A stretch of DNA of 55,433 bases. Source: Nanobdellota archaeon. GTDB lineage: Archaea; Nanobdellota; Nanobdellia; Pacearchaeales; GW2011-AR1. Under the pieces are notes generated by a model, which had not been told where the DNA came from, searched no databases, and saw nothing but the letters and a program-made list of their open reading frames with translations. Within the stretch, counting starts at the first letter, position 1, and the number at the start of each line of letters is the position of its first letter. The position numbers were made by a program, and so were the translations under genes. Location: NCBI GenBank assembly GCA_038044405.1, contig JBBTAC010000002.1, positions 1-55,433 of the forward strand, in the 5' to 3' direction. Shown piece after piece: positions 30,248 through 53,287 of the stretch.

Positions 30248-31153
30248 TCATTTCTCCTTCGTCGCATGTCCCCCAAACTCTTCTCTTAAAAGAGAAATCA
30301 ATCGTGTAGAAAAAGATTGCTTTTTCTCAGACAATTTCCTTTTTCGCAACGCAAGTTTCAAACTATCAAATTCAACACCTGACTTCTTAGCAATTGAATG
30401 AGCCAATTTCCCGCTTTCCCCTCCCCTAATAATGCCGTCAGTATTTTTAAGTTCAGGATTTTTATTCAATATTTTCTCTATTAATTCGGTTAAATTAGAC
30501 TTAATTATGGAGCCATTATTCCAAATTTTAGCAATTTCTTTTAAGTTAAATTTATACTCGCTCTTGCTCAAAACTTCAAAACCTTCACCATAAGCTTCCA
30601 ATATAGCATACTCAATTCCATTATGTATTAATTTTACAAAATGCCCAGCCCCACTATTACCAACATAACCATAGCCATTCTTTTCAGCTAAATCTCTAAA
30701 CAAAAATTCTATTTTTTTAAATATATTTTTATCTCCCCCAATAGTTAAAGAAGCTCCATTTTTTGCTCCTTCTAAACCTCCACTTACACCAAGGTCAATA
30801 AAATTAATTCCCTCTTCTTTTAATACTTCATAACGCCTGGAAGAATCCTCATAAAAAGAATTCCCCCCGTCAATGATTATATCGCCTTCAGAAAGAAATG
30901 GAAAAAGACCTGCAATTATATCATCAACTGGCTTTCCTGCAGTCACCATTAGAATTATAATTTTCCTGTTTCCTAAACTATCTGCAAATTCTTCAAATGA
31001 ATATTTTCCAATCGCTCCTTTTCTAGCCATTTCCCTAGTAGATTCTGGAGAGCGATTATATACAGTTACATGATACTTTTTAGAAATAAGGTTTAAGGCC
31101 ATATTCTTGCCCATCTTGCCCAATCCAACAATACCAACTCTTTTTTTTCCCAT
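30248..31153 (-). CDS. gnd: 6-phosphogluconate dehydrogenase, decarboxylating, short (~300 aa, YqeC/GndA-like) form
   Basis: Rossmann motif VGIVGLGKMGKNMALNL. GVSGGLEGAKNGASL. GAGHFVKLIHNGIEYA. Confidence 0.85.
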   Translation of the reverse strand: MGKKRVGIVGLGKMGKNMALNLISKKYHVTVYNRSPESTREMARKGAIGKYSFEEFADSLGNRKIIILMVTAGKPVDDIIAGLFPFLSEGDIIIDGGNSFYEDSSRRYEVLKEEGINFIDLGVSGGLEGAKNGASLTIGGDKNIFKKIEFLFRDLAEKNGYGYVGNSGAGHFVKLIHNGIEYAILEAYGEGFEVLSKSEYKFNLKEIAKIWNNGSIIKSNLTELIEKILNKNPELKNTDGIIRGGESGKLAHSIAKKSGVEFDSLKLALRKRKLSEKKQSFSTRLISLLREEFGGHATKEK

Positions 31154-31155
31154 AA

Positions 31156-31617
31156 TTATACGGCGCGTCTAGTAAAATGCTCTTGTTTCTCTTCCAGACA
31201 TCTTACGATTCTCAAATAGCCGTTCATAGCACGTTCTTCAAGGTTTTTTCTTACAAGCAATTCTTCTTTGATTTTATCAAGATGCCTTTCTTCCAATTCA
31301 GCAGGATTTCTCACATGATAGAATATCAAACCCCTTAATTCAATCATTTCACCAAATGTATCTAAATCTAAATTATCCGCATCAAAATTATAATTTAAAT
31401 AGGCCGTAATAATCTTTCTATTGCAATTTTCAGAATAAAGTATTCTCCTATTACATTTTTCTTGTGCATCAATTGTTATATCTACCACATATGGTTTGTT
31501 ATCTAGCAGGTCAAAAGCAAGTGTTTCTTTTTTCCCATAAATATCACAGCTTAGTTTTATTTTGCCGTTTACTTCTTTAATTATTAAAGGAGAATATATA
31601 CCTGACAAGTTAATCAT
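31156..31617 (-). CDS. Hypothetical protein
   Basis: 153-aa ORF packed between the LOG-family gene and gnd (2-nt spacer to gnd). No motif. Confidence 0.5.
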   Translation of the reverse strand: MINLSGIYSPLIIKEVNGKIKLSCDIYGKKETLAFDLLDNKPYVVDITIDAQEKCNRRILYSENCNRKIITAYLNYNFDADNLDLDTFGEMIELRGLIFYHVRNPAELEERHLDKIKEELLVRKNLEERAMNGYLRIVRCLEEKQEHFTRRAV

Positions 31618-31662
31618 TATTATATTTAATTTATATAATTATTAAACGTTTCTATGTAAGAA

Positions 31663-32301
31663 TTAAATCTTAAATCTCTTATAATTCAGGCAGAAATTTT
31701 TATCTCCGCCTTTAAAGGCCTGATAAGCTTGCTCAATAACCTTTATTGCCTCTCCAGAATTTTTTGCAAGAAATAAAAGTTCTAAATCTTCTTCATTAAA
31801 AAATTTTCTTCTCAATGGTTCTTTCTTTAACCACTTAATCAAACCTTTCCATTGATCACCAACTAAAATAATAGGTATATGGCAAATGCGCTTTACCTGC
31901 ATTAATTGCCAGCTATAAAATAATTCAAGTATCGTACCAACACCTCCGTGAGCTACTACAATTGCATTTGAAAAAAGCATAAAATGGTCCAGTCTTTCAG
32001 AGAATCTTGCAAACTGTTTTTTAACATCTACATAAGGATTCATCCTTTGTTCATGGGGAAGTTTAATATTCAATCCAATTGTATGTGCACCGTTGTTTCT
32101 GCCCCCAATTTTATGGCCTGCACTGGCCGCCTCCATTATCCCAGGTCCTCCACCAGTTACAAGATCAATTCCTCTTTGACCAATCATTTTAGCAAGTTTG
32201 TAAACTTCATCATATTCCTTGCTTCCCTTCTTCATTCGAGCAGATCCAAATATAGTGACTCTAAACTCTTTTTTCTTTAATTCTTTTGAAATATTTGTCA
32301 T
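31663..32301 (-). CDS. LOG-family (TIGR00730) Rossmann-fold nucleotide-binding protein
   Basis: VTIFGSAR, TGGGPGIMEA, AHGGVGTILE motifs. Confidence 0.85.
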   Translation of the reverse strand: MTNISKELKKKEFRVTIFGSARMKKGSKEYDEVYKLAKMIGQRGIDLVTGGGPGIMEAASAGHKIGGRNNGAHTIGLNIKLPHEQRMNPYVDVKKQFARFSERLDHFMLFSNAIVVAHGGVGTILELFYSWQLMQVKRICHIPIILVGDQWKGLIKWLKKEPLRRKFFNEEDLELLFLAKNSGEAIKVIEQAYQAFKGGDKNFCLNYKRFKI

Positions 32302-32936
32302 TATCTTTCAACTCCTTTAATATTATTCAACAAGATTTCAGGTTTTTTAGAGTTTGCTATTGCAGAAGCAATCAAAACTCCTTTACAGCCCAATTTATAC
32401 GCCTCTCGAATATCATCTGCTGAATTTATTCCAGCTCCGCATAATGTAATAATTCGCGACTTGCGCAATAAATTACTAAACTTCTCAACATCTTTTGTTC
32501 TATATTGAGTAATTGATTTTCCACTTCCAACTAATTTAGGATCCTCAAATGCAATTGCATAAGGCTTTAATTTTGAAATTTTTCTGACTTCATTTAAATT
32601 AGAAGCACAAACAATTATTTTTAAATTAAATTTTTTAGACACAGTTAACACCTTAGAAATATCTTTCATAGAGATAGGATGTTCAGAATGGTTTATTAGC
32701 GTACCCATAGCTCCAGCTTTTTTCAATGTTTCCAGCATGTTGTACCCTGTTGCTCTATTGCTCTCTTTAGAGTCTACATGTTGCGCAAAAACACTCAATT
32801 TAGTATTATCTACAATATTTTCAATATCTATCATGGCAGGGCAGATTATTGCCCTAGGCAGATATTTCTGAATTTTTCTAGCCAATTGCAAAGCAGACTT
32901 TCCTGTTTTATAATTCTTAAAATTTATTACTATCAT
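32301..32936 (-). CDS. tpiA: Triosephosphate isomerase, archaeal short type
   Basis: INFKNY, LINHSEH, IAFEDPKLVGSG. 211 aa. Overlaps the LOG-family gene by 1 nt. Confidence 0.88.
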   Translation of the reverse strand: MIVINFKNYKTGKSALQLARKIQKYLPRAIICPAMIDIENIVDNTKLSVFAQHVDSKESNRATGYNMLETLKKAGAMGTLINHSEHPISMKDISKVLTVSKKFNLKIIVCASNLNEVRKISKLKPYAIAFEDPKLVGSGKSITQYRTKDVEKFSNLLRKSRIITLCGAGINSADDIREAYKLGCKGVLIASAIANSKKPEILLNNIKGVER

Positions 32937-33133
32937 TTTTTATTTCTAGATTCCGAAATTTTAACTAATATTCCCAATATTATAGTAAATAATAAAATAG
33001 AGAAAAATACGTGAAATGTAGAATTAAGTTTTAGACTAGAAAAGTAGATAATATCTAATAGAATAACCAGAGCAAATGAAATTGCATAAGGGATTGCATA
33101 ATTAATTTTCTTGGTTTTATTTTTCATCATCAT
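32933..33133 (-). CDS. Small two-TM membrane protein
   Basis: 66-aa hydrophobic ORF overlapping the tpiA start by 4 nt. Confidence 0.45.
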   Translation of the reverse strand: MMMKNKTKKINYAIPYAISFALVILLDIIYFSSLKLNSTFHVFFSILLFTIILGILVKISESRNKK

Positions 33134-33177
33134 TTCAACTCCCTCGTATCAAAAAATTAATCACTATAAGTATAAAA

Positions 33178-33972
33178 ATGCTTTTAAATTTAAACTTTTT
33201 GAGGTTATTAATGAACAGAAGCCCTCTTATGCTTGGAGTAGAAAGAAAGATTGGCGAGAATATCGAATCTTTCTTAACAGAAGCCTATGTAAATGAATGG
33301 AAGTCTAGTCTTTATATTGGTAGGAAATTAAAAGTTCATCCTGCAACTATAAGGCGTTGGCTCATGAAATCAGGTGTTAACTTAAGAAATACCAAAGATT
33401 ATTTATCTAGAAGAATTAAAAAACCTCTTAACAACACCTTAAAGTATTATTATCATGTAAGAAAACCTGTTTCAGAAATTGCAAGCGAAAGAAAAGTTTG
33501 TGCAAAAACAGTTTATCGTTGGATGGAAAGTGCAGATATAGAAAGGAGAAAGGGATCCAATGCGTATCTAGATAACGGATTTACTAGACCTTCAAATAAA
33601 GAATTAGAAGTGTTGCTAAGTCAAAAAAATAAAAAAGAAATTTCCTCTATTTACGATATTAATCCGCATACTTTAAGAAGATGGATACAACAAGCAGGAT
33701 TGCATCAATTTAAAAAAAGCAGATATGATTCTAAAAATTTAAGAAGAAATATGGTTAAAGATCTGCTTGAAAGATTAGAAAAAGATTTTAGTCAATTAAG
33801 GTATGAAGATTTCAGTACTAAGAAAGAAGATGGAAATTCTTATAGAGGCCTGCTTAATTGGTACATTGCGCACCATCGTTGCAGATTTTCTGGTGTAAAG
33901 AGGCAAATGAAAGAAGATTATTCAGAAAATGACAAAATGTCTAATTCCATATTACCTTCTGAATTTTCTTAG
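33178..33972 (+). CDS. Protein with three tandem helix-turn-helix-like repeats, unknown function
   Basis: Three spaced repeats of a recognition-helix-like motif: HPATIRRWLMKSG, AKTVYRWMESADI, PHTLRRWIQQAGL. The start is uncertain (33178, 33211 or 33229). The 3' end overlaps the convergent aldolase gene by 32 nt. Confidence 0.6.
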   Translation: MLLNLNFLRLLMNRSPLMLGVERKIGENIESFLTEAYVNEWKSSLYIGRKLKVHPATIRRWLMKSGVNLRNTKDYLSRRIKKPLNNTLKYYYHVRKPVSEIASERKVCAKTVYRWMESADIERRKGSNAYLDNGFTRPSNKELEVLLSQKNKKEISSIYDINPHTLRRWIQQAGLHQFKKSRYDSKNLRRNMVKDLLERLEKDFSQLRYEDFSTKKEDGNSYRGLLNWYIAHHRCRFSGVKRQMKEDYSENDKMSNSILPSEFS

Positions 33973-34699
33973 TAATTTCTCCTGGATTCTTGCTTTGCCA
34001 GATATTTCTTCCCACAGCGAGTCCTGTTGCTCCAGTTTTCATTATCTCTTCAGTTTCTTTTAAAAAGTCACTTTCACCTTTTTTAGTCCCTCCAGCAATT
34101 ACAACTTTTGTTTTACCCGCAGTCTTTACAGTCCATTTCAAATCATCCACATTTCCGCCATATTTTAATTTTACAATATCAGCACCCAATTCCAATCCAA
34201 CTCGAGCAGCGTAAGCCATTATTTCTCTAGATGTGTCAGTTTTTATTGACTTTCCGCGAGGATATACCCATGCAATAACAGGAATGCCTTTCGAATGCGC
34301 CTCTCTTTCTATAATCTCAAATTCCTGCATCATTATACTTTCATATTCACTTCCAATGTAAATTGTATATCCCACAGCACTTGCGCCCAATTTCAGAGCT
34401 TCTTGAACAGTACAAAGCTGTCTAGCAAGAGCCTCGCCCTTGTATAAATTTGTCTTTCCATTTAATTTTATAATCAGAGGTATTTTACTAGATCTTATTT
34501 CAGAATTATATTTTTCAGCAATTCCCTTCTGGAAGACAAGCCCTTGAAATTTCCCATTTTTTGCAATATCTATAATATAACTAGGATTAGCGTTTTTATC
34601 ATTAAAATCAGTACTCGGTCCATGCTCTAATCCTTGATCATATGCAAGATAAAGCGCCTTTCCTCTTTTCAAAATCTTATCGATTTTTATTTTCATCAT
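33941..34699 (-). CDS. fbaB: Class I fructose-bisphosphate aldolase, archaeal DhnA/FbaB type (a related DeoC/LacD-family aldolase cannot be excluded)
   Basis: LAYDQGLEHGP, GADIVKLKY (Schiff-base lysine context), GATGLAVGRNIWQ. Confidence 0.78.
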   Translation of the reverse strand: MMKIKIDKILKRGKALYLAYDQGLEHGPSTDFNDKNANPSYIIDIAKNGKFQGLVFQKGIAEKYNSEIRSSKIPLIIKLNGKTNLYKGEALARQLCTVQEALKLGASAVGYTIYIGSEYESIMMQEFEIIEREAHSKGIPVIAWVYPRGKSIKTDTSREIMAYAARVGLELGADIVKLKYGGNVDDLKWTVKTAGKTKVVIAGGTKKGESDFLKETEEIMKTGATGLAVGRNIWQSKNPGEITKKIQKVIWN

Positions 34700-34757
34700 T
34701 CACCTTCAAAAATTAGAAAGAAAGAAATTTTATAAACTTACCTCTGTTAACTATTAT

Positions 34758-35099
34758 ATGAAAAAATATGTAGAAAAGAGGCCCTGGGGAAAATTTGAGA
34801 GATTTACAGATAACGAAAAATCAACTGTAAAAATAATAACAGTAAACCCTGGACAAAAATTATCTTTACAATATCATAATTATAGACAAGAATTCTGGAA
34901 ATTTCTAGACAATCCAGCTAAAGTCACACTAGGAAAAAGAATAATTAAAGTTAAAAAAGATCAAGAAATAATAGTTCCAAAAAAAACTCTTCACAGAGTT
35001 GAGGCATTAGATAAGCCAGTAAGATTTTTAGAAATTGCAATCGGCAAATTTAGAGAAAATGACATCGTTAGAATCGAAGACAATTATGGGCGAGTTTAA
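34758..35099 (+). CDS. Cupin-type mannose-6-phosphate isomerase (type II PMI cupin domain)
   Basis: RPWGKFERF...VKIITVNPGQKLSLQYHNYRQEFW...HRVE. Confidence 0.72.
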   Translation: MKKYVEKRPWGKFERFTDNEKSTVKIITVNPGQKLSLQYHNYRQEFWKFLDNPAKVTLGKRIIKVKKDQEIIVPKKTLHRVEALDKPVRFLEIAIGKFRENDIVRIEDNYGRV

Positions 35100-35105
35100 A
35101 ATTAA

Positions 35106-36482
35106 TTATTTCTCAGCAATTCTCAAAATCTCTTTCAACTTAGATTTCATTGTAACTTTATCAACAGCTTCTAAATTAATTCTCAATAAAGGCTCTGTAT
35201 TGCTTTTCCTAACGCTAAACCAGTAATCATCAAACTGAATTCTCAAGCCATCAAAATTATCTATTTTTCGCGGTTTTTTATTTTTATAATATTTTTTAAT
35301 TTTCTCAACAATGTCTTCACCATCTTTTAATTTTATACTCATCTCTTCAGATTGAGAGTATTTATTAAATTCAGCAATCAAATCAGAAAATTTAATTCCA
35401 TTTTTCTTGGATTGAGAATAAATCTCTAGAACAAGCAAAGAACTAATCAATGCAGAATCAGCGTAATAATTATCCCTATAATAATAATGCCCAGAATGTT
35501 CAACTCCCAATAATGCATTGTTCTTATACATAGACTCCTTCATAAAAGCATGGCCGACTTTAGCACGCACAGATTTTCCATAATATTTTGATATGGTTTC
35601 GTTAATTATTTTACTGCAAGCAGAAGTATAGACAATATTTTCTTTTCTTTTCTTTTCTTGCAAAAGATATTTTGCCAATAAAGCACCTATAAAAGAGGTG
35701 CTAACAAGTTGACCTTTTTCGTCGACAAATGCAACTCTATCCATATCGCCGTCGAAAGCAATTCCAAAATCCGCTTTATCTTTTAAAACCATCTTTCTTA
35801 AAGACTTCATGTTATCTTTTAGAATAGGATTTGGCACATGATTTGGAAATTTTCCATCTAATTTAAAGTATAAGGGCAAAATGCGAATATCTAGGCCTTT
35901 GTAAATAAAAGGAACAAGTCTTCCAGCCATACCATTTCCAGCATCTACAGCTATTTTTAAATTTCCAATTTTACCTGGGTTAACGAAAGATAAAATATGT
36001 TTTTTATAATTTTTTAAGACGTCTCTTTTAGAAATTTCGCCTCTAATTTTTATGTTTGAAAAATAATCTTTTTCAATAAATTTTTTTATTTTATCTAATC
36101 CATTATTCATGTCAATAGGTCTTGCATTAGCCTTAACAATCTTGATCCCATTATATTCTGCAGGATTATGTGAAGCAGTTATCATGATTCCTGGAGTTTT
36201 ATAAAATGCACTCGCAAAATATAAAGCAGGAGTATCAATTAACCCTATATCCATAACATTGATTCCAGAATCAACAAACCCTTTAGCCAACGCATTAAAC
36301 AAAAGATTAGAAGATAATCTCATATCTCTTCCAATAATTATTTTCTTGCATTTTAAAAATTTAGATATCGCCCTCCCAGTTTTATAAGCAAAACTATCAT
36401 CTAACTCCTGGCCATAAACCCCTCTAATGTCGTTCATTCTAAAAATATTTTCAAACATATTGCCTCTTTCCCGATTTAGCAA
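35106..36482 (-). CDS. Phosphomannomutase/phosphoglucomutase
   Basis: Active-site serine loop ITASHNPAEYNGIK. Mg loop GIAFDGDMDR. The true start is probably the internal MFENIF (about 36458). Confidence 0.9.
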   Translation of the reverse strand: MLNRERGNMFENIFRMNDIRGVYGQELDDSFAYKTGRAISKFLKCKKIIIGRDMRLSSNLLFNALAKGFVDSGINVMDIGLIDTPALYFASAFYKTPGIMITASHNPAEYNGIKIVKANARPIDMNNGLDKIKKFIEKDYFSNIKIRGEISKRDVLKNYKKHILSFVNPGKIGNLKIAVDAGNGMAGRLVPFIYKGLDIRILPLYFKLDGKFPNHVPNPILKDNMKSLRKMVLKDKADFGIAFDGDMDRVAFVDEKGQLVSTSFIGALLAKYLLQEKKRKENIVYTSACSKIINETISKYYGKSVRAKVGHAFMKESMYKNNALLGVEHSGHYYYRDNYYADSALISSLLVLEIYSQSKKNGIKFSDLIAEFNKYSQSEEMSIKLKDGEDIVEKIKKYYKNKKPRKIDNFDGLRIQFDDYWFSVRKSNTEPLLRINLEAVDKVTMKSKLKEILRIAEK

Positions 36483-36544
36483 AAGATTTAATAATATAAA
36501 AATCTTGACCTCACTAGATTATTTTAATAAAGAGGTTAAAAAGA

Positions 36545-38746
36545 ATGCAAAAAGACGAGCCAGTAATTCTATATATGGCTACATATCCACCGCGTGAATG
36601 CGGAATAGCAACATTCACAAAAGATATTAGCGATGCTATAGACAGAAGATTCTTTCCATCAATAAAAACAAGAATTCTGGCAATGAATAATAACGGTACA
36701 AACATCTATAATTATCCAAAAAGGGTAATGTTCCAGATTAGCGATACAGAAATATCAAATTATTTAGAAATAGCTAATAAAATAAATAAATCCAAAGAGA
36801 TAAAGTTGATAAATATCCAGCATGAATTTGGAATATTTGGAGGAGAATTTGGAGAATATTTAATTCCCTTTCTAGAAGTTTTAAAGAAACCAGTCGTAAT
36901 AACTCTCCATAGTCTTATTCCATTTCCAAATGAAAAATTAAAAAACGTAGTGCAAGAAATATCTAAAAGAGTTAATGCCCTAATTGTAATGACTAAAAAA
37001 GGAGTTGACATTCTTCGAGAACATTACGGAATAGTTAACGGCAAACCAAAAGTATATGTTATTCCCCATGGAATTCCAAATGTAACCTTTGAATCACAGC
37101 AAAAAGAAAAGAAGAATCTTGGCTTTGAAAACAATACGATTTTGCTGACATTTGGAATGATGGGCCCTGGAAAGGGTTATGAACATGTTATAGAATCTCT
37201 TCCAGAAATTGTAAAGAGCTATCCAAATTTACTTTACTTAATTGTAGGTGAAACTCATCCAATGGTAAGAAAAAGAGAAGGAGAACAATATAGAAACTCT
37301 TTAGATGCCAGAATAAAAAGATTAAAGCTGCAAAAGCACGTTAAATTTTATAATAAGTATGTTACGCAGTCTGAAATAATAAGTTACATTAAAGCCTCAG
37401 ATATTTACTTATGTACGCCAGACAATCCAAATCAAATAACTTCGGGCACATTAGCTTATGCAATGGGCAGCGGAAGAACAGTAATAGCAACGCCATTTAT
37501 TCACGCAAAAGATATTGTTACAGAAAATCGCGGTCGTCTAGTAGAATTCAAAAATTCAGAATCAATAAAGAACGCTTTATCAGAATTATTATCCATAAAA
37601 GAAAAGAGAAAAGATATGGAGCGCAATTCTTATTATTACACCCGTCACATGACCTGGCCAAACGTAGCAATGGCTTATGGCCGAGTATTTAAAGAAATTC
37701 TAAAAGAACAGGCAGTAGATATAAAAGAATTGCCAAAGATAAACATGCAGCATTTAATGAGGCTCACAGATAAATTCGGTATAATCCAATTCTCAGAACA
37801 AACCAATCCCGATAAAGCATCAGGTTACACTTTAGATGATAATGCCCGTGCGTTGCTAGTATCAGCAATGCATTATGAAAGATTTAATGAATATAAACAG
37901 CTAAAATTAATAAAAACTTATTTAGATTATATAAATTTTGTAAAAGATAAGGATGGAAAGCTATATAATTTTGTTGATAAATACAAAATGATAAACGGCG
38001 ATTGGAGTGAAGATGCACATGGAAGAGCATTATGGGCTTTAGGTTATTTAGCTTCGCTAGACAAGATTCCAAAAGATTTAAGGAATAAAGCAGACAATTT
38101 ATTCTTAGAGACTTTATCAGTAGCTTCCATTATGCGTTCTCCAAGAGCAATAGCATTTACAATATCAGGCCTATATTATTATAATCAAAAAAAGAAATCA
38201 GATTATATTAAAAATAATATAAAGAAACTTGCAAATATACTAATTTCACTCTATGATCATAATTCTTCTACAAAATGGCAATGGTTTGAACCATTTCTTA
38301 CATATTCAAATAGCAAGCTCCCAGAAGCCTTGCTTTATGCCTACCAGTTGACAAATGAAGAGAATTATCTCGACAAAGCAGTAAAAACTCTTGATTTTTT
38401 AATTTCAAAAACATTCGAAAAAGATATTTTTGTTCCAATAGGGCAAAGAGGATGGTATGAAAAAGATAAAGAGCGCGCATATTTTGACCAGCAGCCAATA
38501 GAGGCAGGCTACACAGTTCAAACTCTTATAGAGGCTCACAAAATAACAAAAAATGAAAAGTATAAGGATTATGCAATAAAGTCATTTGAATGGTTCTTAG
38601 GAAAAAATATGCTGCGGCAAACAATCTATAACGAGAAAACAGGCGGCTGTCATGACGGTTTAGGTGAAAATGCAATCAATCTTAATCAAGGCGCAGAATC
38701 CACACTTTCATATCTAATGGCGAGATTGTCTTTGATAGAACTTTAA
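36545..38746 (+). CDS. GT4-family glycosyltransferase fused to a C-terminal ~340-aa (alpha/alpha)-barrel-like domain
   Basis: The N-terminal ~390 aa has a GT-B/GT4 layout (ECGIATFTKD..., GETHP..., TSGTLAYAMGSGRTVIATPF). The C-terminal half has helical-repeat motifs DDNARALLV and HGRALWALGY. Confidence 0.78.
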   Translation: MQKDEPVILYMATYPPRECGIATFTKDISDAIDRRFFPSIKTRILAMNNNGTNIYNYPKRVMFQISDTEISNYLEIANKINKSKEIKLINIQHEFGIFGGEFGEYLIPFLEVLKKPVVITLHSLIPFPNEKLKNVVQEISKRVNALIVMTKKGVDILREHYGIVNGKPKVYVIPHGIPNVTFESQQKEKKNLGFENNTILLTFGMMGPGKGYEHVIESLPEIVKSYPNLLYLIVGETHPMVRKREGEQYRNSLDARIKRLKLQKHVKFYNKYVTQSEIISYIKASDIYLCTPDNPNQITSGTLAYAMGSGRTVIATPFIHAKDIVTENRGRLVEFKNSESIKNALSELLSIKEKRKDMERNSYYYTRHMTWPNVAMAYGRVFKEILKEQAVDIKELPKINMQHLMRLTDKFGIIQFSEQTNPDKASGYTLDDNARALLVSAMHYERFNEYKQLKLIKTYLDYINFVKDKDGKLYNFVDKYKMINGDWSEDAHGRALWALGYLASLDKIPKDLRNKADNLFLETLSVASIMRSPRAIAFTISGLYYYNQKKKSDYIKNNIKKLANILISLYDHNSSTKWQWFEPFLTYSNSKLPEALLYAYQLTNEENYLDKAVKTLDFLISKTFEKDIFVPIGQRGWYEKDKERAYFDQQPIEAGYTVQTLIEAHKITKNEKYKDYAIKSFEWFLGKNMLRQTIYNEKTGGCHDGLGENAINLNQGAESTLSYLMARLSLIEL

Positions 38747-38767
38747 ATTTAAAGTATAATAATTTAT

Positions 38768-40485: not shown

Positions 40486-40493
40486 TTCAATAA

Positions 40494-45378: not shown

Positions 45379-45828
45379 ATGGGAAAAGAAGTGATTTACA
45401 TTGGTGCAGATCATTCAGGATTCCAACTAAAAGAAAGAATAAAAGAATATCTTGGAAAAAATAAAATTCAATATGAGGATTTAGGAGGTCGTGGAGATAA
45501 GAATGACGACTATCCAGATTATGCCTTCAAAGTTGCAGAAAAGGTATCTAAAAATAAAAATTCTAAGGGAATTTTAGTTTGCGGAACAGGAACAGGCATG
45601 GTAATTGCGGCAAACAAAGTAAAGAGTATTAGAGCCGCATTTGCTTACGATTCTTATTCTGCAAGGGCGTCTAGGGAGCATAATAATGCAAATATTTTAT
45701 GTTTAAGAGGAAGAAATTTTCAAGAAAAGAAAAATCTTCAATTAGTTAAAATTTGGCTGAGTTCTGTATTCAGCGGAAAAAGCAGACATGAGAGGAGATT
45801 AAGGAAAATAGTAAGATATGAAATATGA
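45379..45828 (+). CDS. rpiB: Ribose-5-phosphate isomerase B
   Basis: GADHSGFQLKE, GILVCGTGTGMVIAANK. I chose the internal ATG at 45379. The stop overlaps the rpe start (ATGA). Confidence 0.9.
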   Translation: MGKEVIYIGADHSGFQLKERIKEYLGKNKIQYEDLGGRGDKNDDYPDYAFKVAEKVSKNKNSKGILVCGTGTGMVIAANKVKSIRAAFAYDSYSARASREHNNANILCLRGRNFQEKKNLQLVKIWLSSVFSGKSRHERRLRKIVRYEI

Positions 45829-46466: not shown

Positions 46467-46468
46467 AA

Positions 46469-46552
46469 CATCAAGATTTGCTGTTCACAAATAGCAAATC
46501 TTGTGTGCTCAAGAACCAAGCAATTAAGAATAGTCTAAAGGTTCTTGACATC
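46469..46552 (+). repeat. Double-hairpin element related to the 3' half of the 5784/28087 repeat
   Basis: CAT-CAAGATTTGCT-(loop)-AGCAAATCTTG (46472-46503), then GCT-CAAGAACC-(loop)-GGTTCTTG-ACAT (46510-46550). The conserved flanks catCAAGA...TCTTG and gctCAAGA...TCTTGacat are the same as in the repeat, with different but complementary inner stems. The second arm overlaps the last codons of pgl. Confidence 0.6.
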
Positions 46553-47224
46553 AGTAAAAACATAGGAATCTTCTATTGAATTAATAAGTTTTGCTGGACA
46601 ATCTGCAATTATCAATTTATTATTCATAAAGTTTTCATAAGCTTCTCTTTTCTCTTCACCAAAGAAAAGAAGCAGTCCACATTTAGATTTCTGCAATAAT
46701 CTTCTAGAAGCCGAAATTCTATCAGAAGGCAGTTTAGGAGATTCTTTCACATTTACAAAAAATTCAGAAGGGTCTTTTACAGACGAATTTGGAAATAAAG
46801 AGCCAACATGCCCATCTTCTCCAGAACTAAGCAATATTATATCATAACAGTCTGAAATTAATTTCAATTCGTTTTTGTATGCTTCTAGTCCTTTATTCAT
46901 AGGCAGATTAAAATAAATATAGGGATGCATGTTATTGCTCAATAAAAGTTTCTGTTTTGTCAAATATTCTAGAAATATATCATAAGCTTGTTTGAAATTT
47001 TTTCCCGGGTCATTACCAATTGTATCATCAATCATAAAGATATGCACTTTATCCCATTTTATATTTTCATTTTTTAAAATATTAAGAACACCAATTATGG
47101 ATCTTCCGCCAGGAATTGCAAGAACAACTCTTTCCTGTATTTTCAGGAGAGAATTTATCTTTTTAGCAATAAGTTGCGCGGCTTTTATTTCAAGTTCTTT
47201 CCTTTTTCCATTAATTATCTTCAT
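46535..47224 (-). CDS. pgl: 6-phosphogluconolactonase
   Basis: [22 protein letters not shown]. Overlaps msrB by 4 nt. Confidence 0.85.
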
Positions 47225-47619
47225 TTTACTTCCTTTTTCTTTTTAAAACCTAAAGCACACGAGTTTATACAATAACGTATACCAGTTGGAGCAGGACCAT
47301 CCTTAAAAACATGTCCTAAATGCCCCCCACATTTCTTGCATATGACTTCGGTTCTTTTCATAAATAAAGAATCATCTTCTTTTAATATAATAGAGTTTTT
47401 TGCAGCAGGACTATCAAAACTTGGCCAGCCAGTTCCGGAATCAAATTTAGTTTTAGAAGAAAATAATTTAGCTCCACAAGCTGCACAAACATACATTCCA
47501 TCTTCTTTATTATGCAAAAGCTTACCCGTAAATGGAAGTTCTGTGCTTTTTTTCCTCAATACTTTAAATTGTTCAGGCGTTAATTTTTTCTTCCATTCCT
47601 CTTCTGTTTTAGCTATCAT
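47221..47619 (-). CDS. msrB: Peptide-methionine (R)-S-oxide reductase
   Basis: Zn CxxC pairs CAACG and [34 protein letters not shown]. Confidence 0.93.
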
Positions 47620-47680
47620 CTTTTTGCTGAATATTTATTTTTTTGCTTGAAGATTTTTTAAAATCTTCTTTCTAAAATCT

Positions 47681-48880
47681 TCATTTTCTGCTTTTCTCCA
47701 GAGCAACTATCCCAAGTAATTTATCTCCACTTATATATTTTATTAAAGCCCCTCCAGATAAACTATTGTAGGAAAACTTATTTAGAATCTTATATTTTTT
47801 TATAGTGGTGGTTAAATGCCCTCCACCTATAATACTAAAGACATTTTTCTTGGAAGTCAATTCAGATATATATTCGAGTAATTTTTTAGTGCCGTAACTA
47901 AATTCATCTATCTCAGAAAATCCAAGTGGCCCCTTCATAAAAATATAGTCCGCCTTATCAATAAAATCCTTAAATAATTCTATGGTTTTTTCATTCACGT
48001 CATATATTTTATAATCGTAAGGTATTTCATTTAAATCAGCATTAACCCTCTTTCCATTTTCTCCAAGCAGTCCAAAATCAACTGGTAAAATAATCTGGTT
48101 TTTATATTTAGAATATATTTTCTTCAATTTAGGTATAAGAGAAAAATAATTATTGTCTTTTAACCATTTGGATTCATATCCCAAATCATAACCCTTGATA
48201 ATTAAAAATAAATTAGCCAAAACACCAGCACAAAGCATTTTGTTTCTTTTATCTTTCAAGAATTTAAATAAAGGAATATAGTCCTCAACTTTTGATCCTC
48301 CAAGAATGAATACTTTATTTTTTCCGCGAGAATTTTCAAATTTTGATAAAGCTTTTAACTCATTTTCAAATTCCAGACCAATAGCACAAGGTAAATATCT
48401 TGGAGGAAGAATAATACTTCCTTGCAATCTATGGGATACTGAAAATGCCTCATTAATGTATAAATCAAATAAACCGCAAAATTCTCTATATTTATTTCCC
48501 TTCATCTCGATATTAATCTCGTCATTATACTCTCTAACATTCCTCAAAATTATCACGTCTTTAATATTCAAATTATTTATTTTATCTCTAGAAACATTCC
48601 CAAACAAATCATCAACATATTCTACTTTTCTTCCGATAAAATTAGACAGAATTTTTGCATGCTGTTCTAATGAAGTAAAATCTCGATCTCCTTTCCTCCC
48701 TTGATGGGCAATTACAACAACTTTCGCATTTTTATTTATCAAATATTTAATAGTCTTAGCAGACGCCTCAAATCTAGGATTATCAAGAATTTTTCCATTG
48801 ACAACAGGACTGTTAACATCTATTCTTAATAAAATTTTTTTATTCCTTACATTAATTTCTGCAAGTTTACGAAGTTTCAT
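47681..48880 (-). CDS. pgk: Phosphoglycerate kinase
   Basis: RIDVNSPV, AHQGRKG, ILGGSKVED, IGGGHL. 399 aa. Confidence 0.9.
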   Translation of the reverse strand: MKLRKLAEINVRNKKILLRIDVNSPVVNGKILDNPRFEASAKTIKYLINKNAKVVVIAHQGRKGDRDFTSLEQHAKILSNFIGRKVEYVDDLFGNVSRDKINNLNIKDVIILRNVREYNDEINIEMKGNKYREFCGLFDLYINEAFSVSHRLQGSIILPPRYLPCAIGLEFENELKALSKFENSRGKNKVFILGGSKVEDYIPLFKFLKDKRNKMLCAGVLANLFLIIKGYDLGYESKWLKDNNYFSLIPKLKKIYSKYKNQIILPVDFGLLGENGKRVNADLNEIPYDYKIYDVNEKTIELFKDFIDKADYIFMKGPLGFSEIDEFSYGTKKLLEYISELTSKKNVFSIIGGGHLTTTIKKYKILNKFSYNSLSGGALIKYISGDKLLGIVALEKSRK

Positions 48881-48881
48881 C

Positions 48882-49874
48882 TTACTTACCCAAAATCAGT
48901 CCTGCAACCCCAACTAATCTATTAGAATATCCCCATTCATTATCATACCATCCAGATATGCTTACTAATTCATCAACTACTTTTGTTAATAAAGAATCAA
49001 AAACACAAGAATGTTTATTATGTATTATGTCCGAAGAGACAATAGGGTCTTCTGTATATTGCAAAATTCCCTTCATTCTTCCTTCAGCTTCTTTCTTAAA
49101 AGTCTTATTAATCATTTCTTTTGTAGGTTTTTTTGATAGTTTTGCTACAATATGGCTTATTGAACCGTCTATAACAGGAATTCTTAAAGCAAATCCGTCA
49201 ATCTTTCCATTTAAATCTGGAAAAATCTCTAAAATTGATTTTGTTGCCCCAGAACTTGACGGAACAATATTCATTGCTGCAGCTCGTCCTCTACGCATAT
49301 CTTTTTTATCATCACCATCTATTAGTTTTTGAGTTGCTGTGTAAGCATGAGCAGTGATAAAATGTGCATTAATAATTTTAAAATTATTATGTAAAACACT
49401 AACCATAGGGGCAATGCAATTGGTAGTACAGCTTGATGCAGAAATTATCTTATGGTTACTCTTCAAATCTTTGTTATTAACTCCAAATGCAATGCAAGAA
49501 TCATGTCCATGAGCAGGAGCTGAAATCAAAACTCTTTTAGCTCCCGCATTAATATGTTTTATAGCTCCTTCTCTTTCTGTAAAAACCCCTGTGCATTCTA
49601 CAACTAAATCTATCTTTTCTCTTTTCCAAGGCAGTTTTTCAGGGTCAAGCTCATGAAATACTTTTATCTTTTTACCATTTACAATTAAGTTATTTCCATC
49701 ATGAGAAGCATTTTTTAATGTTTCATGTACAGAATCATATTTTAATGAATAAACAATATGGTCCAGGTCTTCAGGATGATTTATAAAAAAATTCCATTTT
49801 GCATTAGATTCTAAAGCAGCAAGAAAGAATTGCTTTCCTATTCTACCAAATCCATTTATTGCAACATTAGCCAT
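48882..49874 (-). CDS. gap: Glyceraldehyde-3-phosphate dehydrogenase, class I (bacterial/eukaryotic type)
   Basis: VAINGFGRIGK, catalytic ASSCTTNCIAP, WYDNEWGYSNR. Confidence 0.93.
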   Translation of the reverse strand: MANVAINGFGRIGKQFFLAALESNAKWNFFINHPEDLDHIVYSLKYDSVHETLKNASHDGNNLIVNGKKIKVFHELDPEKLPWKREKIDLVVECTGVFTEREGAIKHINAGAKRVLISAPAHGHDSCIAFGVNNKDLKSNHKIISASSCTTNCIAPMVSVLHNNFKIINAHFITAHAYTATQKLIDGDDKKDMRRGRAAAMNIVPSSSGATKSILEIFPDLNGKIDGFALRIPVIDGSISHIVAKLSKKPTKEMINKTFKKEAEGRMKGILQYTEDPIVSSDIIHNKHSCVFDSLLTKVVDELVSISGWYDNEWGYSNRLVGVAGLILGK

Positions 49875-49952: not shown

Positions 49953-51788
49953 TCACAAGAAGCCACTCATGACATCAACAATCCATTTAGCACTAATTTT
50001 ATACTTATCCAATAATTCTTCCATTGTTCCAGAATGAGGGGCTTCTTTAATAGCTAAATGTTTTATTTGAATGTCGCTATTTGCCAATTCAGCAAAAAGC
50101 ATTTCTCCTATTCCACCTTCTTTATAATGGTCTTCTGTTACAACAATTTTACCGCCGTGCTGTCTTATAAAAGAAGCAAGTTTCTTTATATCTAATGGTT
50201 TAATACAATAAAGATCAATAACAGCGCTATTAATTTTCTTTTGCTTTAACATATCATGTGCTTTAAGAGATTCATGAAGAGTTATACCGCTTCCTATCAA
50301 AACAATTTTATCTTCTTTTGACTGTTTAATTACTTTAAAATCCCCTAGGGCAAATGATTCTTTTTCGTTATAAATTAACTGCGTTTTTGGTCTAGTTGTT
50401 CTTATATATTTCAATCCTCTAGTAGTCGCAGCCAAATGCAGAAGTTTTTCTGTGGATATAGCATCAGATGGATAAAAAATAATTGATTTAGGTATGGACC
50501 TGAATAAAGCAATATCTTCTAATCCCATTTGCGAAGCGCCATCTTCTCCAATGGATACACCAGAATGACTTCCGCAGAGAGTAAAATTTGGATTGGACAA
50601 AGCAGACATTCTAATTTGATCATGCGCTCTTGTTAAAAAAGATGCAAAACTAGAAGCAAATACATTAAATCCTTTTTTTGATAAACCCAAAGCCATACCA
50701 ATCATATTTTGTTCAGCAATATATGCTTCAATAAATTGCATGGGAGTTTTTTCTTTAACCTTCTCAGAAAAAGTAGAATTGCTTACTTCCCCATCAAGAG
50801 CTAAAACACCTGGGTCACTCTTAGCCAAATTAGCCAAAGCATTTCCATAAGCAGTTCTTGTAGCAATTAATTCTGAAGATTTATATTTAGTTAATTGCAA
50901 GCTTGATTTTTTAATTTCTTTACTAACTTTTAATAAGCCCAAAGTAGGTAATCTTATTTTTACCTCAGGCATTTTTGGTTCAGGTATTAATTTTAAAGCC
51001 TTTTCAAGCTCTTTTTTAGAAAGTGCTTTTCCATGCCATCCATTTTTATCTTCAATAAATTTTACACCTTTCCCTTTAAAAGTTTTCGCGATTATTACAC
51101 TTGGTTTGTCTGATTTTCTAGATTTTTCAAATGCTTCTAAAATCTGTTTTATATTGTGCCCATTTACATTAATAGCATCCCAGCCAAATTCTTTAAATCG
51201 AGATTCATACTTTTTGATATCATGGCCGAGCATAGTTTCTCCTGTTTGACCTAATCGATTGACATCAATTATAGCTGTTAAATTGTTCAATTTATAATGG
51301 CTGGCTAATTGCAAGGCCTCATATATAGATCCTTCAGAACATTCGCTATCTCCCAATAGAACATAAACCCTAGAGTTTCTTTTCTGAATTTTCCCAGCCA
51401 TAGCCATTCCAGCCCCAACAGATAAACCCTGGCCAAGAGAACCAGTTGCAACCTTAATCCAAGGTAATAAAGAAGAAGGTATAGGATGACCTTCTAGAGT
51501 GCTTTGTAGTTTTCTTAGTCCAGATAGATTCTGTTTTATGCATCCTGCACGATATAATGCAGCATACAATATAGGTGCAGCATGCCCCTTGCTCAATATA
51601 AATTCATCATTATCAGGATTATCAGAATTCTTTACATCATAAGAAATAGCGTTAAAAAATAAAGAAGACATAATTTCCGCGCATGACAAGCATGAACTAA
51701 GATGCCCGCTTCCAGCTTCAGTAGTCATTTTCAAGACATCCCTTCTCAAAATATTAGCTATGTCTTGCAGTTCCCTTTCGTTTGTCAT
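49953..51788 (-). CDS. tkt: Transketolase, single-chain (unsplit)
   Basis: SGHLSSCLS, LSKGHAAP, LGDSECSEGSIYEA, GEDGASQMG. 611 aa. Confidence 0.93.
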   Translation of the reverse strand: MTNERELQDIANILRRDVLKMTTEAGSGHLSSCLSCAEIMSSLFFNAISYDVKNSDNPDNDEFILSKGHAAPILYAALYRAGCIKQNLSGLRKLQSTLEGHPIPSSLLPWIKVATGSLGQGLSVGAGMAMAGKIQKRNSRVYVLLGDSECSEGSIYEALQLASHYKLNNLTAIIDVNRLGQTGETMLGHDIKKYESRFKEFGWDAINVNGHNIKQILEAFEKSRKSDKPSVIIAKTFKGKGVKFIEDKNGWHGKALSKKELEKALKLIPEPKMPEVKIRLPTLGLLKVSKEIKKSSLQLTKYKSSELIATRTAYGNALANLAKSDPGVLALDGEVSNSTFSEKVKEKTPMQFIEAYIAEQNMIGMALGLSKKGFNVFASSFASFLTRAHDQIRMSALSNPNFTLCGSHSGVSIGEDGASQMGLEDIALFRSIPKSIIFYPSDAISTEKLLHLAATTRGLKYIRTTRPKTQLIYNEKESFALGDFKVIKQSKEDKIVLIGSGITLHESLKAHDMLKQKKINSAVIDLYCIKPLDIKKLASFIRQHGGKIVVTEDHYKEGGIGEMLFAELANSDIQIKHLAIKEAPHSGTMEELLDKYKISAKWIVDVMSGFL

Positions 51789-51934
51789 TTTATTCTTTAT
51801 TCTAATATTTCAAAGTTAAAATCCTATAAAAATCTTCGTTTTTTCAGTAGTATTAATATTAATTATAAAGTAGTAAATAAATGTGTTTTATAGTGCAAGA
51901 GATAATTTAAAAAATCTTCTTTCCTATTAAATTC

Positions 51935-53287
51935 ATGAAAAAGCAAGAGGTGAGCTTTGTCTTATTCGGTGGCACAGGGGATTTAACAAAAAGGAAAATT
52001 GTTCCAGCATTAGCTAATTTAATTCATCAGGGTAAAATTAGAGATGATTCAACAATAATAGGAATTTCAAGAAAAAAAATTTCGGATGAGGAATATAAAA
52101 AATTCCTATTAGATTCAGTAAAAGAAGACAGAGATAAAAGTTATATAAAAAAATTAGATATAAAATTCTTCACTGGAGATTTCACGAAAAGCGGTTTATC
52201 AGGATTGAAGGAATTAATAGAAAAATCAGAAAAACCAGGATGCAGCAGAATATATTATTTATCGACAAGCTTCAAATTCTTTCCAGATATAGTCAAAGAA
52301 TTAAAAAGCCAGAACCTGCATAAAAAAAATCAGGCCTTTACAAGAATAGTATTCGAAAAGCCTTTCGGCAAAGATCTAAAATCATCTGAAAATCTAGATA
52401 AAGAAATCCATAAGGTCTTTTTAGAAGAAAATGTTTTTAGATTAGATCATTATTTAGCAAAAGAAACAGTTCAAAATTTAAACGTGCTAAAGTTCACAAA
52501 TCCTCTTCTTTATAGCACATTTAACAAAGAATATATAGAATCAATAGAAATTATAGTTGACGAAGATCAAGGTGTAGAAAATAGAATAGAATACTACAAC
52601 GATGCCGGAGCTATCAAAGATATGTTTCAAAGTCATCTACTGCAAGTTTTGTCCTTATTATTAATGGAAATGCCATCTGCGTTAGTATATGATAAAATCC
52701 ATGATGAAAAGGTCAAGATTCTAAAAAATTTAGAAATTCTTCAGTCAAAACATCATCTTCTAGGTCAATACGAAAGCTATGAGAAAGAAGCAAAAGTTTC
52801 TGGTTTAAATAAAAGCAAGATAGAGACATTTGCAAAAATAGAGTTAAATTGCAAAATTAAAAAATGGGATAGTGTTAAATTAATATTAAGAACAGGAAAG
52901 AAATTAAAAAGAAAATTTGGGCAGATAATAATAAAATTCAAGCCGATGAAAAACAATGGTAACCATTTAGCAAATATTGCAGATAATAAAATAATCATAG
53001 ATATATATCCTAAACAAGACGTATCTATTTTTATGAATACTAGAAGTCCAGAATTTTATAATCAAGTAAAGCAGGCAAAATTCGAATTCTGTAGAGAATG
53101 TGAATTCGGTCCAAATACAATGAACGAATATGCAACTCTTTTACACGAAGTTATCAAAGGAGATAAAACTCTTTTCACTCGAAGTGACGAAGTTAAGGAA
53201 AGTTGGAAAATAGTTGAAAGGATAGAAAAAATGCGCGATCAAATAAAATTCATAAAATACAAGGATAATTCAAATCCAGAAGAATAA
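51935..53287 (+). CDS. zwf: Glucose-6-phosphate 1-dehydrogenase
   Basis: FVLFGGTGDLTKRKIVPAL, EKPFG, RLDHYLAKE (cf. RIDHYLGKE). Confidence 0.93.
   Translation: MKKQEVSFVLFGGTGDLTKRKIVPALANLIHQGKIRDDSTIIGISRKKISDEEYKKFLLDSVKEDRDKSYIKKLDIKFFTGDFTKSGLSGLKELIEKSEKPGCSRIYYLSTSFKFFPDIVKELKSQNLHKKNQAFTRIVFEKPFGKDLKSSENLDKEIHKVFLEENVFRLDHYLAKETVQNLNVLKFTNPLLYSTFNKEYIESIEIIVDEDQGVENRIEYYNDAGAIKDMFQSHLLQVLSLLLMEMPSALVYDKIHDEKVKILKNLEILQSKHHLLGQYESYEKEAKVSGLNKSKIETFAKIELNCKIKKWDSVKLILRTGKKLKRKFGQIIIKFKPMKNNGNHLANIADNKIIIDIYPKQDVSIFMNTRSPEFYNQVKQAKFEFCRECEFGPNTMNEYATLLHEVIKGDKTLFTRSDEVKESWKIVERIEKMRDQIKFIKYKDNSNPEE

Follow-up and report, generated by a model that had tools for sequence, protein, structure and literature searches.

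Gene Content of the Block

The window analyzed here, meaning the whole stretch under study, comprises 55,433 nucleotides of a Nanobdellota archaeon (contig JBBTAC010000002.1 of assembly GCA_038044405.1), and between its positions 30248 and 53287 lies a 23-kb block in which genes for the oxidative branch (zwf, pgl, and gnd) and the nonoxidative branch (tkt, tal, rpiB, and rpe) of the pentose phosphate pathway are interleaved with five genes of glycolysis/gluconeogenesis, namely those for a cupin-type phosphoglucose isomerase (cPGI), fba, tpiA, gap, and pgk. All of these genes had been named in an earlier sequence-only reading of the window, and every one of them was recovered between these positions by profile searches and through conserved catalytic residues. 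On this sequence evidence, both branches of the pathway are complete, as had been claimed.

The oxidative branch would start with zwf (51935-53287, + strand), the product of which is a classical glucose-6-phosphate dehydrogenase harboring both G6PD_N (PF00479, E 5e-49) and G6PD_C (PF02781, E 6.5e-70) in profile searches and matching solved structures of this enzyme with up to 231 bits. Its motifs GxxGDLxxRK, EKPFG, (R/L)(I/L)DHYLxKE, and QxH are present together with R46 and are invariant or nearly so in 116 relatives, and R46 predicts that NADP+ is accepted. The 6-phosphogluconolactonase gene pgl (46535-47224, -) scores 120.6 bits on Glucosamine_iso and has TIGR01198 as its best NCBIfam model, its scores on NagB models being 29-35 bits; its 13 matches among solved structures are without exception 6-phosphogluconolactonases or proteins of the lactonase family (devB, GDH/6PGL), with the GxDGH motif aligned. 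A second Glucosamine_iso gene (42214-42906) is nagB and not pgl, as it scores above the cut-off of the TIGR00502 nagB model. Finally, gnd (30248-31153, -) encodes a short-chain decarboxylating 6-phosphogluconate dehydrogenase of 301 aa that lies above the cut-offs of both TIGR00872 (310.7 bits) and NF007161 (333.3 bits) and whose solved-structure matches are 6-phosphogluconate dehydrogenases. Residues R34, K174, N178, E181, R290, and H296, which include the catalytic Lys/Asn/Glu and the C-terminal substrate-binding Arg/His, are invariant in 120 relatives, and the N33-R34-S35 (NRS) motif predicts the use of NADP+. Domains, motifs, and scores thus identify the three enzymes as canonical Zwf, Pgl, and Gnd and rule out an F420-dependent or otherwise noncanonical identity, including that of unrelated dehydrogenases.

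In the nonoxidative branch, three of the four genes score above the cut-offs of their models: tkt (49953-51788, -), an unsplit transketolase of 611 aa (812 bits on NF004559, cut-off 488), rpiB (45316-45828, +), ribose-5-phosphate isomerase B (141.6 bits on TIGR01120, cut-off 138.65), and rpe (45825-46466, +), ribulose-phosphate 3-epimerase (173.4 bits on NF004076, cut-off 165). The fourth, tal (44446-45276, -), encodes a short transaldolase of the TalC/Fsa type (PF00923, 172.6 bits) that stays under the NCBIfam equivalog cut-offs; it matches the solved short transaldolase 3s0c with 149 bits, the match being split at residues ~160-193, and carries an insertion of ~34 aa relative to all solved short transaldolases. 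Within the 55-kb window, no gene of the ribulose monophosphate (RuMP) route, either HPS (HxlA) or PHI (HxlB), was found, Rpe and the aldolase showing just sub-threshold similarity to HxlA.

Among the glycolytic/gluconeogenic genes, the cPGI gene (43982-44449, -) matches PF06560 with 65 bits; the nine solved structures that match it best are all chains of cupin-type glucose-6-phosphate isomerases, with which it shares aligned positions (GH-x-H, E, and H) that are taken as putative metal ligands. The fba gene (33941-34699, -) encodes an archaeal class I fructose-bisphosphate aldolase (FBA) of the DhnA family (PF01791), with 247 bits to the solved 1ojx as opposed to 124 bits to the paralogue MJ0400, and tpiA (32301-32936, -) encodes the archaeal triosephosphate isomerase in a short form of 211 aa, which scores 196 bits on NF003302 (PRK04302), above the cut-off of 132, and falls under that of TIGR00419. 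A type I glyceraldehyde-3-phosphate dehydrogenase is encoded by gap (48882-49874, -; 371.6 bits on TIGR01534, cut-off 367.2, and only 24 bits on the type II model PRK04207), and phosphoglycerate kinase by pgk (47681-48880, -; PF00162, 327 bits). No hexokinase/glucokinase, phosphofructokinase (PFK), PGAM, enolase, or pyruvate kinase was found among the scanned open reading frames (ORFs) of the window.

From overlaps and spacings, we infer four tight transcription units. In the string formed by a small ORF, tpiA, a LOG-family gene, a gene called x153 (or x), and gnd, the ORF and tpiA overlap by 4 nt and tpiA and LOG by 1 nt, whereas 45 nt separate LOG from x and 2 nt x from gnd; rpiB and rpe overlap by 4 nt, as do msrB and pgl, and gap and pgk are 1 nt apart. 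These four arrangements had been described correctly before. Beyond them, six minus-strand genes, tal-cPGI-GH130-nagB-PIG-L-GT4, follow one another with successive overlaps of 1-4 nt, tal being the first and PIG-L overlapping both nagB and the second glycosyltransferase gene (GT4) by 4 nt, and tkt-gap-pgk-msrB-pgl likewise form one minus-strand string, with spacings of 78, 1, 61, and -4 nt. The latter string is divergent from zwf, at a distance of 146 bp. No riboswitch was detected in the block by an Rfam scan, in which a tRNA was the only match.

Host and Contiguity of the Locus

The same contig carries the genes of the RNA polymerase side, encoding an Rpb2-type RpoB, an Rpb1-type RpoA in a single ORF, NusA-KH, the ribosomal proteins S12 and S7, and aEF-2. 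RpoA is 56-79% identical to its counterparts in genomes labelled Woesearchaeota, Pacearchaeota, or Nanoarchaeota, and the closest relatives of RpoA, Zwf, and Gnd alike belong to genomes of these groups. These archaeal information-processing genes and nearest relatives bear out the archaeal assignment of the host, which is a member of the Woesearchaeota/Pacearchaeota group (GTDB Nanoarchaeota) from the oxic Hainich groundwater. Indeed, the exact Zwf protein is encoded by a contig of 88.5 kb recovered from the 0.1-µm fraction of groundwater well H41 at Hainich, and also by a second, independent assembly; this well is oxic, with 4.83 mg/L O2 (PMC8672522).

As to contiguity, one contig of an independent public run covers positions 29000-48999 with zero differences, contigs from four public runs of two studies tile the same interval at flat depth, and the region of 42-55 kb is identical in two separate ENA assemblies. 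Because a single 20-kb contig without differences and a flat depth across runs are at hand, a chimeric assembly is very unlikely. The sequence in view amounts to 55 kb of the genome, and genome-wide absences lie beyond it.

The block adjoins the RNA polymerase operon in only one of 80 RpoA-anchored loci (L118; loci of relatives are denoted by L numbers throughout), so that we attach no meaning to this juxtaposition. RpoA itself (24598-28050, +) is one ORF of 1150 aa with Rpb1 domains 1-5, and full-length matches (residues 1-1150) occur in genomes of Woesearchaeota and Pacearchaeota; in most archaea, RpoA is split into A' and A''.

Conservation and Tightness of the Cluster

The loci of relatives were built from exact-protein look-ups, single-protein scans having given three archaeal loci from the genome collection and seven from the metagenome collection, mostly on short contigs. 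In GCA_053534655.1, the Zwf of which is 72-73% identical to that of the window, 16 genes of the window are collinear within 24 kb, in the order GT733, pgm, cupin, gnd, LOG, tpiA, fba, cPGI, tal, rpiB, rpe, pgl, pgk, gap, tkt, and zwf, and in GCA_030648155.1 (Zwf 67% identical), 15 genes, GH130 included, are found within 34 kb. At 42-59% Zwf identity, a core of tkt and zwf with rpiB-rpe, pgl, and often gnd is kept in L002, L015, L100, and L110; the tkt/zwf core is also kept in L001 and is dissolved in L111-L113, at 46-47% Zwf identity. On the opposite strand upstream of zwf, tkt recurs in L001, L002, L011, L013, L015, L100, and L110, directly adjacent to it in L002 and L110, and L197, L198, L110, and L118 share with the window the links of LOG to tpiA and to gnd.

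A coupling of msrB to pgl, which had been proposed to tie NADPH supply to the repair of oxidative damage, did not find such support: in the closest relative (L011), pgk and pgl have no msrB between them, and the gene is missing from the conserved blocks of both relatives. The arrangement is specific to this genome, and, without conservation, the idea of a redox coupling was rejected and the adjacency treated as incidental.

For Zwf and for Gnd, at least 120 sequence clusters each were retrieved above 42-49% identity, and almost all of those with a name come from Woesearchaeota, Pacearchaeota, or Nanoarchaeota. A Zwf labelled "Colwelliaceae bacterium" (P0025/L110) comes from a locus that also encodes a chaperonin of the Cpn60/TCP1 family and RtcB, looks archaeal, and is likely mis-binned; a Gnd labelled "Patescibacteria group bacterium" (P0193, 58% identical) could be explained by mis-binning or by sharing between the candidate phyla radiation (CPR) and DPANN archaea.

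With regard to tightness, the 49 bacterial zwf loci whose 10-kb flanks are complete hold 0-3 of the other six pathway genes nearby, against 5-6 in the window and its relatives, the bacterial counts being a lower bound because the queries were divergent. Near the zwf genes of the sampled bacterial loci, gnd was met in 35/93, tkt in 26/93, and pgl in 12/93. The clustering is, as had been suggested, unusually tight.

Composition and Origin

The block had been proposed to be a horizontally acquired or heavily consolidated island, and of these two alternatives only consolidation stood. The genes of the block have a guanine-cytosine (GC) content of 0.25-0.35 and a third-position content (GC3) of 0.17-0.26, compared with 0.30-0.35 and 0.20-0.30 for housekeeping genes, and the relative synonymous codon usage (RSCU) of the block correlates with that of the genes for EF-2, ribonucleotide reductase, RpoB, RpoA, and S12/S7 at r = 0.84-0.96. 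Since GC, GC3, and codon usage match those of the RNA polymerase and ribosomal genes, the block is not a recent island. Pfam detected neither an integrase nor a transposase catalytic domain in the block, and no tRNA flanks it, border repeats not having been searched; the sole tRNA (19361-19436) lies 11 kb upstream.

A bacterial Zwf outgroup was drawn from an alignment-based locus search in GTDB genomes, a search that returned bacteria only and was useless for synteny. The best of ~600 bacterial candidates is ~37% identical to the Zwf of the window, compared with 42-73% in the archaeal group, and, in a quick distance tree based on a biased bacterial sample, the archaeal group stands apart from 81 sampled bacterial Zwf proteins, with a mean identity of 49% within the group and 34% between the two.

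The claim that several genes are of bacterial type was borne out by the type I glyceraldehyde-3-phosphate dehydrogenase, RpiB, the unsplit 611-aa transketolase, and the classical Zwf, which are bacterial-standard types; tpiA, FBA, and the cupin PGI are of archaeal types. Because the block is collinear in relatives and the best bacterial Zwf is only ~37% identical, any transfer from bacteria must have been ancient and lineage-wide. The best explanation for the bacterial-type genes is that the lineage acquired them long ago, at or near its base, and later consolidated them with the native tpiA, FBA, and cPGI genes.

Sugar and Glycan Genes and Other Features

The description of the block as a central-carbon cluster of 23 kb holds for all the genes named but needs one qualification, as ~10 kb in its middle (34758-43985) are devoted to sugar and glycan metabolism and belong to neither the pentose phosphate pathway nor glycolysis. 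This region starts with a cupin of 113 aa (34758-35099, +) resembling the C-terminal mannose-6-phosphate isomerase (PMI) domain of GMP/PMI enzymes (PF01050, 82 bits; C-terminal region of TIGR01479), counterparts of which stand beside gnd in two relatives at 74-76% identity. It is followed by a putative phosphomannomutase/phosphoglucomutase (PMM) gene (35106-36482, -) with four PGM_PMM domains and 456 bits on NF007088, under the equivalog cut-off, and by a GT4 glycosyltransferase gene of 733 aa (36545-38746, +; PF00534, PF13692) with weak solved-structure matches and a C-terminal half without assigned function, 68-70% identical to counterparts in the blocks of both relatives. The region also contains a 96-aa ORF and the gene for a putative glycoside hydrolase of 368 aa (39129-40235, +), which has GDE_C and GH100-like matches (PF12899, PF06202) and distant matches to alkaline invertases.

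The remaining genes of the region belong to the tal operon. Its last gene encodes a second GT4 glycosyltransferase (40494-41633, -; PF00534, 101 bits), preceded in the operon by genes for an N-acetylglucosaminyl deacetylase of the PIG-L/LmbE family (41630-42217, -; PF02585) and for the glucosamine-6-phosphate deaminase NagB (42214-42906, -; 249.9 bits on TIGR00502, cut-off 236.9), the product of which is fructose-6-phosphate. The GH130 gene (42906-43985, -) encodes a probable mannoside phosphorylase (PF04041, 182 bits; NF050092, 278 bits, under the cut-off), which matches the structures 9fj8, 5b0p, and 7fip and is closest, among solved structures, to beta-1,2-mannobiose and oligomannan phosphorylases.

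This sugar-entry module appears to vary between genomes, because the blocks of relatives differ in a kinase, nagB, PIG-L, GT4, and the placement of GH130: a ROK-family kinase is encoded inside the block of relatives (L197, 15830-16654; L198, 19272-20099), the window instead has nagB, PIG-L, and a second GT4, none of which was seen in the blocks of the relatives, and its GH130 is placed differently. A histidine-phosphatase (PGAM-like) gene also occurs in the block of L197 (11264-11860).

Elsewhere in the block, the LOG-family phosphoribohydrolase gene (31663-32301, -; PF03641, PF18306) has 123 bits to solved LOG enzymes and weaker matches to PpnN nucleosidases. Between LOG and gnd, x153 (31156-31617, -) encodes a lineage-specific protein of 153 aa without a Pfam or NCBIfam match, with positional counterparts 27-31% identical in L197 (9479-9919) and L198 (9493-9939). 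The small ORF upstream of tpiA (32933-33133, -; ORF list and translation) encodes 66 aa of hydrophobic character and adjoins a gene for a multi-helix-turn-helix (HTH) protein of 264 aa (33178-33972, +), which matches several HTH and transposase-HTH models weakly. The site of these two genes is a likely rearrangement breakpoint, as suggested by the position of fba close to tpiA at this place in relatives, adjacent in L198 and two genes apart in L197. The msrB gene (47221-47619, -) encodes a methionine-R-sulfoxide reductase (PF01641, 173 bits).

A ParE-family toxin of 86 aa and an upstream partner of 81 aa (29735-30247, +) are encoded at the left edge of the block, where they separate gnd from the ribosomal S7 gene. 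Farther upstream in the window, an NrdR-like repressor with a zinc ribbon and an ATP-cone precedes a class II ribonucleotide reductase carrying a LAGLIDADG intein (14519-18949, +); the same arrangement of NrdR, a small ORF, and the intein-bearing reductase also adjoins zwf in a Pacearchaeota locus (L112, 3174-7833). A protein of 1525 aa with Laminin_G_3 and SdiA-regulated domains (411-4988, +) is plausibly a surface or attachment protein, and two DUF1761 paralogues flank the EF-2 gene on either side (5004-5429, -; 8879-9265, +). A thiol oxidoreductase of the VKOR family lies beside an M23-peptidase-like protein (19583-20951, -); together with MsrB and the NADPH-producing branch, these add to the redox-related genes of an organism that comes from an oxic well.

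Discussion

Relation to Known Pathways

Complete pentose phosphate pathways have been reported in Woesearchaeota since 2015 (Castelle et al. 2015, as cited in PMC5864196), and a complete or near-complete pathway has been counted in ~42% of DPANN genomes, with Woesearchaeota and Pacearchaeota named (PMC8407392). The same study finds PFK widely absent in DPANN and proposes the pentose phosphate pathway as a bypass, considers tkt and tal of DPANN to be derived from bacteria, and reports HxlA and HxlB in Altiarchaeota and not in other DPANN archaea (PMC8407392). Furthermore, zwf, devB, and gnd are listed among the genes of Woesearchaeota (PMC11606122), glucose-6-phosphate and 6-phosphogluconate dehydrogenases have been noted in Pacearchaeota (PMC8506132), and a complete pentose phosphate pathway has been reported in Nanohaloarchaea (Narasingarao et al. 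2012). Together with the at least 120 clusters each of Zwf and Gnd, these publications show that the pathway is already common and described in the lineage, and that, contrary to the sequence-only reading, the window is not exceptional in this respect. The published pathways resemble that of the window in lineage or superphylum and in their classical Zwf, Pgl (devB), and Gnd joined to Tkt, Tal, Rpe, and Rpi, as well as in the proposed role of a bypass for a missing phosphofructokinase and the proposed bacterial origin of tkt and tal. What sets the window apart from these reports, which treat the presence or absence of the pathway, is the evidence of gene order, along with its use of RpiB where rpiA is listed (PMC11606122). 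None of this literature was found to describe the conserved gene order of 24-36 kb, the tal-cPGI-GH130-nagB operon, or the tpiA-LOG-gnd link.

The oxidative branch of Haloferax volcanii is likewise archaeal and ends in a 6-phosphogluconate dehydrogenase (Pickl and Schonheit 2015, as cited in PMC8506132), whereas the haloarchaeal glucose-6-phosphate dehydrogenase is of an unrelated short-chain-dehydrogenase type and that of the window is the classical G6PD_N plus G6PD_C enzyme. Bacterial zwf neighborhoods share with the window the clustering of a classical Zwf with other pathway genes; however, the sampled ones hold at most three of the other six pathway genes within 10 kb, when the window brings together all seven and five glycolytic genes besides. 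Actinobacteria and cyanobacteria are known for a tkt-tal-zwf-opcA-pgl operon, from which the window differs by having no opcA and by the archaeal-type tpiA, FBA, and cPGI mixed in. Cupin-type phosphoglucose isomerases are known as the cPGI enzymes of Thermococcales (Pyrococcus, Thermococcus). The cPGI of the window is like them in its single cupin domain and its aligned GH-x-H, E, and H positions, but it is shorter (155 vs. ~189 aa), distantly related (~69 bits), and apparently co-transcribed with tal and the GH130 phosphorylase gene; it may also have a PMI side activity.

A Proposed Shunt and Its Alternatives

Taken together, these observations lead us to read the block as a native, vertically inherited central-carbon neighborhood that would run a pentose phosphate shunt independent of PFK, a reading to which we assign a probability of roughly 0.8. 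The enzyme complement and the operon structure come from the sequence, on which a tentative scheme of fluxes can be drawn. No sugar kinase being encoded in the window, scavenged carbon would enter as sugar phosphates: phosphorolysis of mannosides by the GH130 enzyme would yield mannose-1-phosphate, to be turned into fructose-6-phosphate by PMM and by a PMI activity of either cupin; the PIG-L deacetylase and NagB would lead from amino-sugar phosphates such as glucosamine-6-phosphate to the same product; and LOG, whose solved relatives include nucleotide 5'-monophosphate nucleosidases, could release ribose-5-phosphate from nucleoside monophosphates, that is, from scavenged nucleotides. The cupin PGI would then equilibrate fructose-6-phosphate with glucose-6-phosphate, from which Zwf, Pgl, and Gnd would produce NADPH and CO2 (NADPH because Arg46 and the NRS motif point to NADP+). 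RpiB, Rpe, Tkt, and Tal would regenerate fructose-6-phosphate and supply glyceraldehyde-3-phosphate, which the dehydrogenase and PGK, whose genes are apparently co-transcribed with tkt and pgl, would convert into 3-phosphoglycerate with a gain of ATP. Such a scheme would correspond to the PFK-independent pentose phosphate shunt previously proposed for DPANN archaea, and the oxic habitat fits a demand for NADPH.

Several points weigh against the shunt as drawn. Zwf scores 382.6 bits on TIGR00871, slightly under its equivalog cut-off of 400.6, and Pgl 107 bits on the TIGR01198 pgl model, under the cut-off of 124; we read both shortfalls as probable divergence and not as another function. The Zwf comparison, given the type of tree and its sample, does not allow the donor or the date of a transfer to be read. 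Substrates were assigned to GH130, LOG, the cupins, the GT4 transferases, and the glycosidase from distant homologues, and the direction of flux, catabolic or anabolic, is not readable from sequence. Finally, the absence of PFK, hexokinase, and RuMP genes holds for the 55-kb window, and a kinase route may exist, given the ROK-family kinase gene in the blocks of relatives.

Three other explanations concern the identity of the locus, and all fare poorly. That bacterial pathway genes were fused to an archaeal contig by an assembly or binning artefact is barely credible: the source data are metagenomic and some homologues carry bacterial labels (the Colwelliaceae Zwf, the Patescibacteria Gnd), but positions 29000-48999 recur without differences on a single contig of an independent run, depth is flat over four runs of two studies, two ENA assemblies agree, base composition is uniform, and the chaperonin and RtcB of the "Colwelliaceae" locus make the label rather than the locus look wrong. 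It is also highly improbable that one or more of Zwf, Pgl, and Gnd belong to another family (an F420-dependent enzyme, a second NagB, a beta-hydroxyacid dehydrogenase) and leave the oxidative branch incomplete. Such a view could appeal to the scores of Zwf and Pgl just under the NCBIfam cut-offs and to the short form of Gnd, whose N-terminal domain also matches models of 3-hydroxyisobutyrate and tartronate-semialdehyde reductases; yet Gnd passes two cut-offs of its own family against at most 90 bits on the reductase models and keeps its catalytic K/N/E and C-terminal R/H, Zwf has both domains and all classical motifs, including the catalytic histidines of DHYLxKE and QxH, Pgl matches only structures of the 6-phosphogluconolactonase/lactonase family while a separate, true nagB is present in the block, and zwf, pgl, and gnd stand together on the same contigs in relatives, within one 10-kb stretch in L015 and L110. 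A recently acquired bacterial island, which would have given this reduced genome its pentose phosphate pathway, is largely refuted and very improbable, even if the bacterial-standard genes, the ParE toxin-antitoxin pair at the left edge, and the multi-HTH protein inside the block are what one might expect of it. Against it stand a composition indistinguishable from that of the RNA polymerase, ribosomal, EF-2, and ribonucleotide reductase genes, the lack of an integrase and of a flanking tRNA, collinearity in relatives with 67-73% identical Zwf, the at least 120 relatives each of Zwf and Gnd in the same archaeal group, the distance of the best sampled bacterial Zwf (~37%), and the interleaving of archaeal-type tpiA, FBA, and cPGI with the bacterial-type genes.

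A different issue is what the block is for. It could be mainly anabolic, working in the gluconeogenic direction from triose phosphates to provide nucleotide salvage and the synthesis of cell-surface glycans with ribose-5-phosphate, erythrose-4-phosphate, NADPH, and activated hexoses, and not breaking down scavenged sugars for energy, an alternative that we take seriously while considering it unlikely. Two GT4 transferases, PMM, the PMI-like cupin, and the PIG-L deacetylase are typical of glycan building, FBA and triosephosphate isomerase are encoded, GH130 enzymes are reversible (one solved relative is named a mannoside synthase), and the part of the sugar module conserved in relatives consists of the 733-aa GT4, PMM, and the cupin. 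However, the apparent co-transcription of gap and pgk with tkt and pgl and the deaminating NagB both fit catabolism, no fructose-bisphosphatase or nucleotidyltransferase was found in the window, and published reconstructions of DPANN metabolism favor a catabolic shunt. The two readings are not exclusive and may coexist.

Returning to the PFK-independent shunt, one may go a step further and view the conserved block of 24-36 kb as a lineage-specific "scavenge-to-pentose-phosphate" supra-operon, in which three ATP-free entries (GH130, NagB acting on host-derived amino-sugar phosphates, and LOG) would feed a cyclic oxidative pathway replacing upper glycolysis, and in which tpiA-LOG-x-gnd would mark a previously unrecognized route from nucleotides to central carbon. 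This extension is speculative, and we regard it as rather doubtful. If it were true, the tpiA-LOG-x-gnd route of DPANN archaea would be analogous in purpose to the archaeal pentose-bisphosphate route of AMP phosphorylase and RuBisCO.

Significance for the Lineage

Overall, the block is archaeal, complete, built of classical enzymes, and unusually consolidated, and it is neither exceptional within its lineage nor a recent island. The picture of archaeal pentose metabolism is not overturned by it, since this lineage had already been recognized as an exception. The locus lends support to published work in which a full oxidative and nonoxidative pathway with classical enzymes of bacterial type is ascribed to some Woesearchaeota and Pacearchaeota, and adds to it a conserved gene order, the probable transcription of tal and cPGI as one unit with nagB and a mannoside phosphorylase gene, as suggested by their overlaps, and a conserved LOG-gnd link. 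Where the pieces of this pathway are usually collected from fragmentary genome bins, they are found here on one DNA molecule beside the RNA polymerase operon, and the window thereby provides a clean, contiguous, and independently re-assembled example of how an ultra-small groundwater archaeon organizes its entire sugar-phosphate core.

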